From the NCBI GenBank assembly GCA_046330075.1, contig JAXLTL010000001.1, forward strand, positions 396,481-460,480: DNA of 64,000 nucleotides, given 5' to 3'. Source of the DNA: Bacteroidia bacterium. Its GTDB lineage: Bacteria > Bacteroidota > Bacteroidia > AKYH767-A > OLB10. The translations under genes and the position numbers were made by a program. The notes under the pieces were generated by a model. The model saw only the letters and a program-made list of their open reading frames with translations. It searched no databases and had not been told where the DNA came from. Below, in pieces: positions 5,180 through 62,824 of this stretch; position 1 is the stretch's first letter; each line of letters starts with the position of its first letter.

Positions 5180-5497
5180 GTATCTGCACGTATTTTTCGG
5201 GTGAAATAAAAACGGGTGAGTTTTATTTTCCCTTGTAAAACTAACGATTTGCGCTAAAGGCAGAGTGCCTCACGAATTATAAAAAGTGTTTTTCGCAAAG
5301 AGGGTAGAGTGTGCCGTTATAATCAGACATCAGGAGATAATCACCTGTCCTCTTATTGCTTTTTGTCGCCGCAGTACCCGTATGGATGGGATTTGCCCGA
5401 CCCGCTGAACAGGGAGGTTGCGTATTCGATTCCTTCCGAATACTGATTTACCAAAAGTGATGTGCAATTGATGGCGGATACAGCGTGTACCGGAGAA

Positions 5498-6388
5498 TTA
5501 CTTTCTGAAATTATCCGCCACCACAATATCTTTTGAACCCTTGGTGTATTTGTAAAATCCTTGTCCGGATTTTACACCAAGATTTCCGGAAGTCACCATG
5601 TTTACCAGCAATGGACATGGTGCATATTTGGAAGTGCCGAACCCATCGTGCAGGACACGAAGAATGCTGAGACAAGTATCGAGTCCGATGAAATCTGCCA
5701 GTTGCAGCGGTCCCATCGGATGTGCCATACCAAGTTTCATCACGGTGTCAATTTCTTCAACTCCTGCAACACCTTCAAACAATGAATAAATAGACTCATT
5801 GATCATAGGCATGAGTATCCGGTTGGCAATAAACCCCGGATAATCATTTACCTCTACCGGAACTTTGTTCAGCTTCCGTGAAATGTCGAAAATCAAGCCG
5901 GTGACTTCATCCGAAGTATTGTATCCTCGGATGACTTCTACCAGTTTCATCACAGGTACCGGATTCATGAAGTGCATACCAATGACTTTATCGCCACGTT
6001 TGGTTACAGCGGCGATTTTTGTGATGGAAATAGAGGAAGTATTTGTGGCAAGAATGCATCCCGGCTGCGTGAATTGATCCAGATCGCTGAAAATTTTCAG
6101 TTTCAGGTCAATGTTCTCTGTAGCTGCTTCTACAACAAGTTCAGCTGAAGCTACGCCGGAAGCCATATCCGTAGAGGTGGTAATTCTGGACAATGCAGCG
6201 TTTTTTTCCTCTTCGGTCAGCCCACCTTTGGAAATCTGTCGATCCATGTTCCTGGTAATCGTGTTTATCGCCTGATCAAGCGCTTCACGACGAATATCAA
6301 TCATGCAAACATCAAATCCGCTTTGAGCGAAAACGTGCGCAATTCCATTTCCCATTTGGCCGGAGCCGATTACAGCAATCTTCTGCAT
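5498..6388 (-). CDS. hbd: 3-hydroxybutyryl-CoA / 3-hydroxyacyl-CoA dehydrogenase
   Basis: N-terminal Rossmann motif IAVIGSGQMGNGIAHVFAQSGFDV and the C-terminal HCDH domain; 296 aa. Confidence 0.9.
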   Translation of the reverse strand: MQKIAVIGSGQMGNGIAHVFAQSGFDVCMIDIRREALDQAINTITRNMDRQISKGGLTEEEKNAALSRITTSTDMASGVASAELVVEAATENIDLKLKIFSDLDQFTQPGCILATNTSSISITKIAAVTKRGDKVIGMHFMNPVPVMKLVEVIRGYNTSDEVTGLIFDISRKLNKVPVEVNDYPGFIANRILMPMINESIYSLFEGVAGVEEIDTVMKLGMAHPMGPLQLADFIGLDTCLSILRVLHDGFGTSKYAPCPLLVNMVTSGNLGVKSGQGFYKYTKGSKDIVVADNFRK

Positions 6389-59806: not shown

Positions 59807-60292
59807 ATGAAAAAAAACTGTAAAGAATGCGGTGAACCGTTCCTGGGACGGACCGATAAAAAATTCTGCGGAGATCTCTGCAGGAACGCGTATCACAATA
59901 AGTCAAATGGCTACCGAAATGCCTTGATTCGTCATGTAAACCATAAACTCAGGCGCAACCGGAGTATTCTGGCTGAATTGTTCAACCGGGATGTCTTTGA
60001 AATTACGCTGGAGGAACTGAGTTTTCTGGGTTTTGATCTGCGCTTTTACACGCAGGAAAATAAGTTATCGGATCAATGGTTCCGGTTTTGTTATGATTTT
60101 GGGTATCATCTGGATGAAGAAAGCTTATATGTAAGCATTATTGATAAGCCATATAAAAATAGGCGGGAGGCAAGAGAAATTTCAAATGCAGCGGAATCAC
60201 CCGTTAAATACCTTGATGCTGGTGCTGGTAAAGATGTAGCAGTTAGAACCGGAAACGTTGATCCAACCTCAAAGCAAATAGGAAACTCCTGA
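59807..60292 (+). CDS. Hypothetical protein with N-terminal Cys4 zinc-ribbon-like motif
   Basis: CKECGEPF...CGDLC in the first 30 aa; 161 aa; no family recognised. Confidence 0.5.
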   Translation: MKKNCKECGEPFLGRTDKKFCGDLCRNAYHNKSNGYRNALIRHVNHKLRRNRSILAELFNRDVFEITLEELSFLGFDLRFYTQENKLSDQWFRFCYDFGYHLDEESLYVSIIDKPYKNRREAREISNAAESPVKYLDAGAGKDVAVRTGNVDPTSKQIGNS

Positions 60293-60447
60293 TGGATTGG
60301 AGGTTTTCAGTGACGGGTTAATCCAGGTCCGATGATTATCGCTATTTAACATAACTGGTGATATCAATGGATTTACCGGCCATAATTCCGCCAATCCTTC
60401 ATTATAATGTTATGACGTTATGTTAACATAGCTTCGGTAGTGCGTTG

Positions 60448-60609
60448 CCGTTATCATTAAAGGTTGCGACCTCTGCGCAAAAACCGAAGCGGATTAAGTA
60501 GCTTTGAAAAAGCGAAAGACGCTGTTTTTGCGCAGAGGTCGCAACCGTTCGCAAGGGAGGCGTGTCAGCGAATGCTGACCGAGAGCATCCCGAAGCGATT
60601 AATGATAAC
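60448..60609. other. Multi-hairpin inverted-repeat element at the left boundary of the AT-rich island (candidate structured ncRNA or element terminus)
   Basis: Nested IRs: outer cgttatcattaa / ttaatgataac; inner perfect 23-bp ggttgcgacctctgcgcaaaaac / gtttttgcgcagaggtcgcaacc with a 39-nt loop; third hairpin gtcagc-gaat-gctgac. Confidence 0.6.
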
Positions 60610-60670
60610 AGGGATGGATGCTTATTTCGGTTTCGGAAGTGGTGGAGGGATACTTTCGGGTGGTTGTATC

Positions 60671-61087
60671 TTAATGACAATGGCACTTGTGGTAAAACTC
60701 CCATATCTGAATCAAAGTGTACCAAAGGGCAAAGACACCAATTACCGCTAATGCCAATTGCAAGCGGTTCGCATCTTTTTGTATCCGTATTTGGAGCAAT
60801 TGTAATTCTTGATTTTTACGATCACGAAAATCACGATCAAGTTTCTGCCGATGATACCCACCGCTTTCTATAAAGTAGGTTCCTAAAAATGTAATTGATA
60901 TGGTGGTATGATGAGGATCGTGATGTTCATTTATAATTTTCGCATATTTATCCTCAGTTAACTTATCTATAACTAACATCAAATCATCAGCAGTTAAGCT
61001 GTGTCCGAATCTATTGATACACGCCAATAACGAATCCTCTTGTTTTATGTCTGTGATAAAAGTCTTCTTGTAAATATTTAGCCTCAT
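60671..61087 (-). CDS. Hypothetical protein with C-terminal TM anchor (island-encoded)
   Basis: 138 aa with a soluble N-terminal roughly 100 aa and a C-terminal hydrophobic helix LALAVIGVFALWYTLIQIW. Lies in the low-GC segment. Confidence 0.45.
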   Translation of the reverse strand: MRLNIYKKTFITDIKQEDSLLACINRFGHSLTADDLMLVIDKLTEDKYAKIINEHHDPHHTTISITFLGTYFIESGGYHRQKLDRDFRDRKNQELQLLQIRIQKDANRLQLALAVIGVFALWYTLIQIWEFYHKCHCH

Positions 61088-61358
61088 GAATCATATAATA
61101 ACTACTGCAAAAATTATCGGATTAACCTTATCTGCAATCGGGTTTATCCTATCTTGTTATTTGTACTATAAATACATCTGGAAGATGACACCAGAGGAAT
61201 TTTGGTCAACATATACGGTATATGGAAGCGACAAACTGAGCGAAAAAGCCAAGAACAATAAGCGTAATCCCTACCTTAGATCGTTGGTATATTTTTTTAT
61301 TATACTCGCTATTCTTGTCTGTTATCTGCTCGTAATACGTTTCAATTTTAACTTTTGA
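61086..61358 (+). CDS. Alternative small two-TM membrane ORF (overlaps 61206-61433 on the opposite strand; only one is likely real)
   Basis: 90 aa MNHIITTAKIIGLTLSAIGFILSCYLYYKY...FFIILAILVCYLLVI. Its ATG overlaps the start codon of the divergent 60671-61087 gene. Confidence 0.25.
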   Translation: MNHIITTAKIIGLTLSAIGFILSCYLYYKYIWKMTPEEFWSTYTVYGSDKLSEKAKNNKRNPYLRSLVYFFIILAILVCYLLVIRFNFNF

Positions 61359-61433
61359 TGGTAGTCCGTAGATATACAATAAAATTGATCCGATAAGACC
61401 TAATACTTGTCCTGCAATGTTTAGTATTTCCAT
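61206..61433 (-). CDS. Hypothetical small two-TM membrane protein (island-encoded); mutually exclusive with the + strand ORF 61086-61358
   Basis: 76 aa from the internal Met (MEILNIAGQVLGLIGSILLYIYGLP...LIVLGFFAQFVASIYRIC); same strand as 60671-61087. Confidence 0.35.
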   Translation of the reverse strand: MEILNIAGQVLGLIGSILLYIYGLPSKVKIETYYEQITDKNSEYNKKIYQRSKVGITLIVLGFFAQFVASIYRIC

Positions 61434-61633
61434 ATCCCAAAAATAGCAAATCCGCTTTAGCGGATGCCGCTTATCATCCCGCACACGCATGAACGTTGCC
61501 GTAACGCTGACAACGCACACGGCAATGTTAGGGAGAGTGCGGGATCAGAAACGATGATCCATCCCGTGTGTGCGGCTATTTAGCATAGCGTGAATTATAT
61601 GGCGAAGACATATAATTAACATTATGTTAAATA

Positions 61634-61681
61634 GCAATTAATTAAAAATGAGGCAGTTATGCCCCATTTTTAATTAATTGC
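61634..61681. terminator. AT-rich near-perfect 21-bp inverted repeat immediately downstream of the TPR gene stop (terminator and/or island boundary)
   Basis: gcaattaattaaaaatgaggc-agttat-gccccatttttaattaattgc. Confidence 0.55.
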
Positions 61682-62824
61682 TTATTTACCTTCCATTGCC
61701 TTTTTCACTTCATCAGCTTTTTTCATATCCCCTAACCGAAGATAAATCTGCTTTAAACTTTGAAGTGTGCTCATGTCTTTTGGACTCAGCTCTCTTGCCT
61801 TTTCCAGGTATGGCAATGCTTCCTTGAACTTAGCTTCAAACTTCTTCTTGGCAGCATCATATTCAGCAATCTTATTAGCCGGTATGCTGTTGGCTTTATT
61901 GCTAAGATCTGCTCCTTCATTGAAGAACATCGCTCCTAAGTTGTATGCCGCATCGAAATAATCAGGTTTCAATTCCAGGGCGCGCTTGTATGCCGCTACC
62001 GCTTCTTCTTTTTTCCCTAATTTATCAGCAAGATTGCCTTTAATGTATTGTAATACAGCATTGTTTGGGTCCGACTTGATAGCGTCTTCATTTTGTGCAT
62101 AGGCTTCTTTGTCCTTACCTGATGAAAGATAGATATTAAGCCCCTGTGTAATCAAAGTACCGTCTTCCGGATATTTTTGACGACCCTGGTTAATTGTCAT
62201 TAAGGCATTAGCGGTATCCTTTTGCTCCAGATACATGTTCGCCATCAGACTGTACAATTTTGATCCACCATAGTTGGCATCTGCCAGTAGTTTGAAGTTA
62301 TTCAGTGCTGTTGAGGCATTGCCTGATTTATCTGCTGCTAATCCGGCATTGTAAATGGCAAGGGTGTCGAGACGGTTGAAGTACTTTTTGTTGATATCGG
62401 CACTGGTCTGGAATAACTTGAATGCTTCAGCGAATTTACCGTCTTTATAGAAGTCTACTCCACCGTTAAGTGACTGAGATGCAAGAATTTCAAGACGTTT
62501 CATCAAATCGTCCTTGTATTCACTTTTCGTATCCAGTTCGAGCGTTTTTTCATAGGACTTTCTGGCTTCTTCCAATGCTCCCGGTTTCAAGGCTGCGAAT
62601 TTTGGATTAGTGGTTTCATGTAATGCATGATAGATCAATCCCCGGTAATACCATGCTTTTGACATGCCCATAGAAGATTCATTGGTACATGCCCCATCTA
62701 TAGCTTCCTTAGCTTTGTCGAGGTCTTCGTAACGTAAATAGTTGATGGCTGTTTGAACAGCCGCTTTTTGGGCACTTGCATGAATTGAAATGAATACTGC
62801 AAGTAAAACCAATAAACGTTTCAT
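61682..62824 (-). CDS. Tetratricopeptide-repeat (TPR) secreted protein
   Basis: Signal peptide MKRLLVLLAVFISIHASAQ, then multiple TPR-like helices (AWYYRGLIYHAL..., AIYNAGLAADKSG..., AAYNLGAMFFNEG...). Confidence 0.75.
   Translation of the reverse strand: MKRLLVLLAVFISIHASAQKAAVQTAINYLRYEDLDKAKEAIDGACTNESSMGMSKAWYYRGLIYHALHETTNPKFAALKPGALEEARKSYEKTLELDTKSEYKDDLMKRLEILASQSLNGGVDFYKDGKFAEAFKLFQTSADINKKYFNRLDTLAIYNAGLAADKSGNASTALNNFKLLADANYGGSKLYSLMANMYLEQKDTANALMTINQGRQKYPEDGTLITQGLNIYLSSGKDKEAYAQNEDAIKSDPNNAVLQYIKGNLADKLGKKEEAVAAYKRALELKPDYFDAAYNLGAMFFNEGADLSNKANSIPANKIAEYDAAKKKFEAKFKEALPYLEKARELSPKDMSTLQSLKQIYLRLGDMKKADEVKKAMEGK

Follow-up and report, generated by a model that had tools for sequence, protein, structure and literature searches.

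Most of the known mobile elements that exploit the Xer recombinases of their hosts are phages or genomic islands of Proteobacteria, or dif modules of Acinetobacter plasmids. Integron cassettes, which are arranged in arrays of one- or two-gene units and moved by a recombinase encoded outside of the cassettes, recombine at folded attC sites (R''/L''/L'/R' boxes, GTTRRRY core) formed by the strand antisense to the gene, the bottom strand. CTXphi/RS1 of Vibrio cholerae reside at the chromosomal dif, lack an integrase and form tandem arrays (PMC4246890). The attachment site attP of CTXphi contains attP1 and attP2 in inverted orientation, with central regions of 12 bp and 5-7 bp, respectively, and it works only as a forked hairpin of the phage plus strand, with which XerC then exchanges one strand with dif (PMC4246890). 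The dif modules of Acinetobacter are small, recombinase-free units bounded by XerC/XerD sites, whose accessory genes frequently encode toxin-antitoxin pairs and which are shuffled from one replicon to another and lined up in series (PMC13141974, PMC6449649). Moreover, Bacteroidetes microvirus proviruses (BMVs; Alpavirinae) have dif-like direct repeats at their flanks, no integrase and sometimes an extra inverted dif-like site close to one end (PMC3091885). Here, we describe a segment of 1208 bp from an uncultured member of the Bacteroidia (assembly GCA_046330075.1, contig JAXLTL010000001.1, positions 396,481 to 460,480; this whole stretch of 64,000 nucleotides is called the window). The segment lies between the genes for a Zn-ribbon protein and a tetratricopeptide repeat (TPR) protein, and we interpret it, with a probability of roughly 0.75, as a miniature, non-autonomous integrative element at the chromosomal dif, i.e. 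as a cassette that would rely on the Xer tyrosine recombinases of its host (an integrative mobile element that exploits Xer, or IMEX). A full-text search of the literature, which was not exhaustive, retrieved no description of such units in Bacteroidota.

The cassette ends within a site that is identified, at the level of the sequence, as the chromosomal dimer-resolution site dif (Table 1). This site agrees at 23 of 28 positions with the dif that Kono et al. 2011 predicted for Cytophaga hutchinsonii (TTGTTATATAATTTACATTATGTTAAAT); the predictions for Chitinophaga pinensis and Pedobacter heparinus are AATACTTATAATTTATATTATGTTAAAT and TAGTCACATAATTAATATTATGTTAAGT, respectively (PMC3025954 supplement). 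Its core, TATAA-N6-TTATGTTAA, occurs a single time in the window and adjoins the TPR gene in every relative covering the region, down to a TPR identity of 43-45%. Eleven related loci from metagenome-assembled genomes (MAGs), whose TPR proteins are 63-83% identical to that of the window, have kept the order gyrA-TPR-gap-Zn-ribbon-ssb-lpxB, and in all of them the core is found just after the terminator of the TPR gene. Furthermore, the GC skew was negative to the right of dif at 13 of 13 loci and positive to the left at 10 of 13; in the window, it is mostly positive over the 60 kb left of dif, and the cumulative curve peaks at about 60.7 kb. This change of sign at dif supports, with short right flanks, the location of the terminus, and dif is likely to mark the replication terminus between the convergent Zn-ribbon and TPR-gyrA genes. 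The XerC arm of the present dif was delivered by the cassette, and the central region and the XerD arm are resident. The terminator-like hairpin of the TPR gene, which is kept after dif in the relatives, overlaps the last bases of the XerD arm and lies outside of the cassette.

Two related MAG contigs, L029 (CALQEU020000009.1) and L030 (CAZHSC010000049.1; loci are designated by L numbers throughout), bear the title Bifidobacterium, probably owing to wrong binning or labelling; they carry the gyrA-TPR-dif(-Zn-ribbon-ssb-lpxB) block of Bacteroidota, with proteins that are 72-86% identical to those of the window. In L037, L038 and L039 (TPR 45% identical), a second perfect XerD arm (TTATGTTAAAT) is present 579 nt left of dif in the orientation of the window. 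The arm at the XerC position of this second site is unrelated to the usual one, and the two sites bracket the 3' end of an open reading frame (ORF) with an AHELTH (HExxH) motif, which may represent another kind of dif-associated insert.

Both joints of the cassette are located exactly at the border between the XerC arm and the central region. The left junction, attL, is a hybrid site: the XerC arm CTTCATTATAA comes from the chromosome, and the central region TGTTATGACG, of 10 nt, and the XerD-like arm TTATGTTAACA belong to the cassette. In L001, the sequence corresponding to window positions 61340-61615 is fused directly to 60408-61282, and the joint reads GACATATAA, with CATATAA before the border, followed by TGTTATGACG; this is the right-end-to-left-end junction of a 1208-bp unit. 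A lineage with an 81% identical Zn-ribbon protein has both an empty and an occupied site. In the empty site, L105, GGCGAAGACATATAA is followed by TTAACATTATGTTAAAT. The occupied site, L099, has an identical left flank and diverges from L105 exactly after CATATAA, where it continues with TGTATGACGTTATGTTAACATAGC and a left module. L092 carries two different cassettes in tandem, ending at dif, and in the long-read MAG contig L032, at least four units, each of 725-930 bp, form an array that reaches the contig end. L027 and L031 harbour a diverged cassette type with the same joint. Thus, the joints in L001, L105/L099, L092, L032 and L027/L031 delimit the unit of the window as given in Table 1, with dif being re-formed at its right end. 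The same joint nucleotide in the XerC arm was observed across five independent sequence types. The location at dif together with joints at the border between the XerC arm and the central region points to site-specific recombination by the host Xer system. At the sequence level, the cassette combines the hallmarks of an IMEX, i.e. location at dif, dif-like bounds with the joint between arm and central region, absence of an integrase and existence of an empty site, with an attachment site that, according to the predicted folds, is of the CTX type.

Related uncultured Bacteroidota contain different cassettes, tandem arrays or no cassette at the same spot. The gap between the Zn-ribbon and TPR genes comprises 1389 nt in the window and 112-1302 nt in the eleven related MAG loci, and short gaps lacking a cassette were found in L030, L033 and L035. 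Moreover, contigs encoding identical Zn-ribbon or TPR proteins show several alleles of the dif locus, and many of them stop at cassette ends. The short-read contigs L003, L010, L014, L015, L018, L020 and L021 end at positions equivalent to 60429-60432 and 61587-61632 of the window. Such stops suggest that several junction variants coexist in those samples, and the single cassette copy of the window could be a collapsed tandem repeat. The neighbouring cassettes 1 and 2 of L032 (about 120-660 and 1050-1590, in the orientation of the window) have almost identical cargo, with small indels as the main difference; either a tandem duplication of a single cassette or homopolymer errors of the long reads could be the cause, and the ORFs of this contig are not trustworthy. 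At the contig end of L099 (about 5475-5544), an ORF starts with MEKKKFDYEAFKKEAAERLKKGG, which is similar to the N-terminal sequence of transposases of the IS256 family; the assembly break may be due to an insertion sequence located within the array. The gap of L031 contains, at about 260-590, a unit of about 50 nt (GAACGTTGCGATCGTTGCGTTTAAAGAATCCTCGATCGAACTGCCT) in roughly six tandem copies, and L024 and L025 have at least one copy of it. These units are located between the Zn-ribbon gene and the cassette or dif, and short AT-rich microrepeats (TTCAGAATTAAGAATT and similar) follow the stop codon of the Zn-ribbon gene.

Comparison of the cassettes with their flanking genes indicates that they spread horizontally. 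Over 211 nt, the left modules of L099 and L092 share 99.5% identity with that of the window, whereas the lpxB, ssb, Zn-ribbon, TPR and gyrA genes of these organisms are 74-83% identical to those of the window. The units are mosaics, as they differ in their cargo and in the hairpin at the centre of the right module. L106 has a hybrid right module, as expected from cassette loss by recombination between flanking right modules.

The order of elements is constant in all units: a central region of 9-11 nt and the XerD-like arm come first, then the left module (about 190 nt) and the variable cargo, which lies on the minus strand, and finally the right module (about 170 nt), counted here with the TATTTTTG box and with the inverted dif-like site and XerC arm in which it ends. 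The left module is predicted to form a three-way junction, which consists of an outer stem (60450-60460 / 60599-60609), a long hairpin (60459-60484 / 60524-60549) and a second hairpin, and it carries GGGATGGAT at 60611-60619. A total of 13 pairs changed on both sides, compared with 4.2 in shuffles (0/500) and 0-6 with slid partners. The left module folds 7-12 kcal/mol better on the plus than on the minus strand in 5/5 copies. In the right module, a small invariant hairpin (ATCCGCTTTAGCGGAT) occupies 61450-61465 and a long imperfect one 61468-61553; ATCCATCCC is located at 61557-61565 and is inverted relative to the motif at 60611-60619. The long hairpin is kept though its sequence is entirely different in three types, and 10 pairs changed on both sides (2.8 in shuffles, 0/500; 1-4 with slid partners). 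Every cassette, and also the resident right modules, possesses the inverted dif-like site that abuts dif. In L112, the XerC arm of this inverted site differs from that of the window, and the adjoining XerC arm of dif is changed to match, so that the pairing is kept. Outside of the cassette, the relic inverted XerD-arm-like motif is part of GCTATTTAACATAA at 60341-60354. The shorter sites L120-L123, which lack a cassette, have this motif with one mismatch (TTATGTTAAAC) about as far from dif, and in L105 and L106 its position is taken by complete right modules. To judge from these sequences, the relic is probably the decayed right end of an older cassette.

The two dif-like sites of a cassette have central regions of different length, 9-11 nt in the left-end site and 6 nt in the inverted site, and the homology between dif and the cassette centres is limited to the one or two bases that directly follow the XerC arm. 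Folding of the joined cassette ends predicted a forked hairpin in all sequence types. The plus strand folded better by about 5-14 kcal/mol in 5/5 junctions and by 9-14 kcal/mol in four of them, with energies (plus versus minus, in kcal/mol) of -26.2 versus -12.7 for the window type, -34.0 versus -23.4 for the L027 type, -31.8 versus -22.8 and -27.3 versus -22.5 for junctions 3 and 2 of L032, and -24.9 versus -15.9 for L092. Furthermore, all of the transition differences between paired arms, read by eye (8/8), give G-T rather than A-C on the plus strand. The site layout, the predicted hairpins, the plus-strand bias, the G-T pairs and the kept pairing in L112 favour the integration of a folded single strand by XerC. 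According to this model, the two dif-like sites would adjoin in inverted orientation in a circular or tandem form, and solely the plus strand would fold into a forked hairpin in which a XerC-arm duplex and a XerD-arm duplex enclose a partly unpaired centre, like in attP(+) of CTXphi. XerC would then exchange one strand between the hairpin and dif at the border between arm and central region, and replication would finish the integration. Repeated integration would build arrays, and recombination between flanking right modules would delete cassettes. Judging by the skew, the plus strand would be the expected lagging-strand template left of the terminus.

The cassettes share with CTXphi/RS1 the location at the chromosomal dif, the lack of an integrase, the tandem arrays, two inverted dif-like sites of which one has an overlong central region, the one-strand forked hairpin, which is predicted in our case, the joint at the border between the XerC arm and the central region, and a central homology to dif of 1-2 nt (PMC4246890). 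However, they comprise 0.7-1.2 kb instead of about 7 kb, the two sites are 0-30 nt rather than 90 nt apart, and genes for replication, regulation and morphogenesis are missing; the cargo gave no Pfam or PHROG matches to an RstA-like initiator, coat or assembly proteins. Moreover, they occur in an uncultured host from the Bacteroidia, their cargo is swappable in a cassette-like manner, and the single-stranded form and Xer dependence are deduced. The Acinetobacter dif modules have inverse pdif sites, alternating C/D modules, 6-bp spacers and Rep_3 plasmids as carriers (PMC13141974). By contrast, the cassette of the window is located at a chromosomal dif, its flanking sites (60397-60428 / 61605-61632) are direct, one spacer has 9-11 nt (10 in the window), and each unit contains about 360 nt of conserved, structured non-coding DNA. 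The BMVs belong to the same phylum as the present host; however, they are 4.7-6.3 kb long and encode a capsid protein and a rolling-circle initiator (PMC3091885), neither of which is encoded here.

Several observations weigh against the interpretation of the segment as a Xer-dependent cassette, or against parts of it. The GC skew of the right dif flank rests on 0.5-6 kb per locus, and the covariation counts rest on 5-6 sequences of about three types, of which L032 is a noisy long-read contig. Many cassette-free relatives retain the right module or part of it (55-180 nt) beside dif, and the right module may therefore be partly a resident feature of the chromosome. The junction in L001, which has one single nucleotide polymorphism relative to the window copy, is equally compatible with a tandem duplication and does not demonstrate a free circle. 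With DNA parameters, the hairpin of the window-type junction beats shuffled sequences marginally (z = -1.95), and the G-T bias could stem from strand-specific C-to-T mutation rather than from selection for pairing. Among the ten mid-size ORFs of the window that were scanned, which are housekeeping genes or lack a recombinase domain, there was no xer or other recombinase gene; integration may also proceed via double-stranded DNA or depend on a dedicated tyrosine recombinase whose gene lies elsewhere. Finally, neither a replication initiator in the cassettes nor a helper was found (Pfam and PHROG on the cargo, four IMG/VR patterns).

A more far-reaching form of the Xer-dependent cassette can be put forward tentatively, and we regard it as clearly less probable than the cassette itself: dif may serve as an integron-like platform at which the housekeeping Xer recombinases take up, pile up and release short promoter-bearing cassettes. 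Every cassette would then carry a folded single-stranded site of two inverted dif mimics together with about 360 nt of conserved structured DNA, and the substrate of Xer would be the lagging-strand template at the terminus, with no phage, replication initiator or dedicated integrase involved. If true, this would be a cassette system distinct from integrons, Acinetobacter dif modules and phage-type IMEXs.

Of the competing explanations, an origin from phages survives best, although we consider it unlikely. It holds that the cassettes are satellites or defective remnants of a temperate single-stranded DNA phage, a microvirus or inovirus, which integrates at dif; the modules would serve as its origins or for packaging, with the replication initiator and the capsid being provided by a helper phage. 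As a special case of the Xer-dependent cassette, such an origin would not contradict it, and the dif-like flanks of the BMVs, the CTX-like layout of the attachment site, the better folding of the plus strand and the similarity of the tandem arrays to the CTX/RS1 arrays at which rolling-circle replication starts would all agree with a phage origin. However, no cassette contains a gene for a replication initiator, a capsid or morphogenesis, the cargo has no PHROG match, and four sequence patterns detected no related sequence in 2.9 million IMG/VR contigs. These scans returned chance 15-mer matches and one match inside a high-GC methyltransferase gene (L091), and a viral origin via these patterns was rejected, with nothing real among the matches. 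Moreover, the folded strand is antisense to the cargo genes, whereas the packaged strand of single-stranded DNA phages is not known to be antisense to their genes.

It is even less probable that the host itself owns a hypervariable terminus region, in which the modules would be resident regulatory or non-coding-RNA elements and variation would arise by homologous recombination and decay, with no role for Xer. Such a region would account for the right modules that persist beside dif in cassette-free relatives, for L106, which looks like the homologous recombination product of two right modules, and for the mosaic cargo with its 365-nt replacement (see below). It does not account for joints at the same XerC-arm nucleotide in five independent sequence types, for a left module that is 99.5% identical where the flanking genes are about 78% identical, or for the pair of dif-like sites that each unit possesses; there are no Rfam family matches either. 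A MITE-like non-autonomous transposon (miniature inverted-repeat transposable element) or an integron cassette moved by an integron integrase can be rejected with near certainty on the basis of the arm sequence and the single-locus distribution, for, although the units are small, recombinase-free, structured at their ends, arranged in arrays and folded on the strand antisense to the genes, as attC bottom strands are, their ends are different modules without terminal inverted repeats and target-site duplication, all related copies are found at dif and no second copy exists in the window, the arms match dif and not the attC core, no integrase gene was detected within ±5 kb of the segment or in the checked sequences around the related loci, intI, attI and a Pc platform were not found either, and the cassettes seem to bring their own promoter-like box and insert at dif.

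The initial annotation of the window had described a foreign, non-autonomous mobile insertion with structured bounds, small membrane-protein genes and no recombinase. This description is largely real; it was right in kind and wrong in type where it considered a MITE. Its evidence for structure at both boundaries was reproduced: the region 60430-60630 folds with -94.6 kcal/mol (z = -8.7, 0/200 shuffles as good) and contains the perfect 23-bp inverted repeat (60462-60484 / 60524-60546), and the right boundary is dense in inverted repeats, with arms (61468-61502 / 61519-61553) that are 74% complementary and a fold with z = -3.5. However, the boundary segments are not two copies of one repeat but different left and right modules, which adjoin around the attachment site in the circular or tandem form, and neither the 23-bp arm nor any part of 60300-61700 recurs in the window. 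The low GC content that had been assigned to 60300-61690 is confined to about 60700-61300 (0.33); in windowed analysis, the boundary segment 60300-60800 has a GC content of 0.46, above the value of about 0.42 for the flanks. The ttatgttaa repeats, which had been taken for possible target-site or attachment repeats, are indeed part of the attachment sites, namely of the XerD arms, but they are not target-site duplications and not located at 60414 and 61627. TTATGTTAA occurs at 60418-60426 and 61622-61630, with a third, inverted copy at 60346-60354, and the true crossover points, between 60407 and 60408 and between 61615 and 61616, follow TATAA 11 and 7 nt left of the repeats. The core CGTTGCCGTWA is present in both boundaries, as had been noted, but its sharing is probably due to chance, because the 1.6 kb concerned contain three further 9-nt direct repeats and the relatives lack the core in their homologous modules; cgttgccgt was rejected as a meaningful repeat. 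A Rfam scan of 58.5-64 kb (E <= 1) gave noise far under the thresholds (plant microRNA, U8, histone stem-loop), and there is no tRNA or transfer-messenger RNA gene near the site.

As stated in the same annotation, the segment encodes a 138-aa protein with a C-terminal hydrophobic helix and a small protein with two hydrophobic helices (either 90 aa, plus strand, or 75 aa, minus strand), and none of its ORFs matches a recombinase or transposase family. The 138-aa protein is an N-terminally truncated allele of a 161-aa protein (P0001), which is present in L004, L007 and L008, and an indexed search for the 138-aa form found just this allele. The 161-aa protein combines a winged-helix domain with a long helix and, at the C-terminus, a membrane helix; its structure model has a predicted local distance difference test (pLDDT) score of 86.7, and the best PDB matches are MarR/PadR winged helices, which are weak (E about 0.007). 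An exhaustive search uncovered a loose family of about 150 aa with 28 weak relatives (E 1e-8 to 1e-3), which share the winged-helix core, the long helix, the C-terminal membrane helix, an LDxVL motif and often a Cys/His tail. According to the family alignment, the near-invariant LDxVL motif is lost from the 138-aa form. This family is not tied to the cassette, as two remote relatives checked in context lie away from dif-like sites. The truncation is caused by a 365-nt segment that replaces the 88 nt encoding the N-terminus of the 161-aa gene in other strains, with a breakpoint at the start codon, and that adds the small two-helix ORF. Two cargo alleles coexist in one metagenome set (the window versus L004, L007, L008, L016 and L017).

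The 75-aa reading of the small ORF is favoured by its position, as its ATG follows a conserved TATTTTTGG box and is located at the same position as the ATG of the 161-aa allele; automatic gene callers disagree and picked the 90-aa ORF on the plus strand. In sister cassettes with sequences of short-read quality, the longest cargo ORFs are on the minus strand. A TATTTTTG box ends 4 nt upstream of the cargo ATG and is kept in the window, L004 and L092B, with close variants in the L032 cassettes. It fits the Bacteroidetes -7 promoter motif, TAnnTTTG, and may act as the promoter of the cargo. A scan with the sigma-70 consensus, which is not applicable to Bacteroidetes promoters, yielded fewer sites than shuffled sequences. 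The longest cargo ORFs of other cassettes encode 84, 89 and 124 aa and match no known family, and in another sister cassette, the gene for a 166-aa protein forms a pair with one for a HEPN-domain protein (PF05168, 24.7 bits versus a cut-off of 22). PADLOC and PHROGs gave nothing significant for the cargo, and no cargo protein has a Pfam or PHROG match to phage proteins or replication initiators. A toxin or abortive-infection function, as had been considered, is hinted at solely by the HEPN-domain gene in the sister cassette, and a role of the cargo in conflict or addiction is a guess.

Two further features concern the neighbouring Zn-ribbon gene, which is located at 59807-60292 on the plus strand; the TPR gene on the other side of the gap occupies 61682-62824 on the minus strand. 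The Zn-ribbon gene always adjoins dif on the side opposite to the TPR gene in this clade, and its 161-aa treble-clef product (homologues P0031-P0040) matches no Pfam family above threshold.

Table 1 Predicted features of the dif locus, with positions in the window
Feature	Position	Strand	Basis
Mobile cassette, 1208 bp	60408-61615		Junctions in L001 and L092; empty/occupied pair L105/L099
Left junction attL, hybrid site	60397-60428	+	Window sequence, L001 joint, L105/L099 divergence
Chromosomal dif, AAGACATATAA-TTAACA-TTATGTTAAAT	61605-61632	+	Match to Kono et al., unique core, synteny, GC skew
Inverted dif-like site, TCGCCATATAA-TTCACG-CTATGCTAAAT	61578-61605	-	Inverted repeat abutting dif at the XerC arms
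Left module, three-way junction	60429-60621	+	Fold z = -8.7, covariation, strand bias, 99.5% identical copies
Right module	61450-61577	+	Hairpins kept across types, covariation
Relic inverted XerD-arm-like motif, TTATGTTAAAT	60344-60354	-	Part of GCTATTTAACATAA
Cargo ORF, 138 aa	60671-61087	-	N-terminally truncated allele of the 161-aa protein
Allele-specific segment, 365 nt	61066-61430		Replaces 88 nt in other strains
Cargo ORF, 75 aa, two hydrophobic helices	61206-61433	-	Alternative: 90-aa ORF, 61086-61358, plus strand
Conserved TATTTTTG box	61438-61445	-	Upstream of the cargo ATG
Terminator-like hairpin belonging to the TPR gene	61626-61689	-	Inverted repeat, kept after dif in relatives

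For this lineage, the analysis locates dif and the terminus, and the cassette arrays at dif explain why short-read assemblies break at the locus. The small horizontally moving genes, such as those for the membrane-anchored winged-helix proteins and the HEPN gene, are candidates for conflict or addiction functions. Moreover, the same exploitation of Xer would operate in uncultured Bacteroidia in a much reduced form, with units of about 0.7-1.2 kb that lack replication and phage genes, are exchanged and pile up at dif. If the single-strand model is true, the folded attachment site of the CTX type would be a general solution rather than a peculiarity of Vibrio phages, and the cassettes would represent a natural intermediate between Xer and integron recombination.

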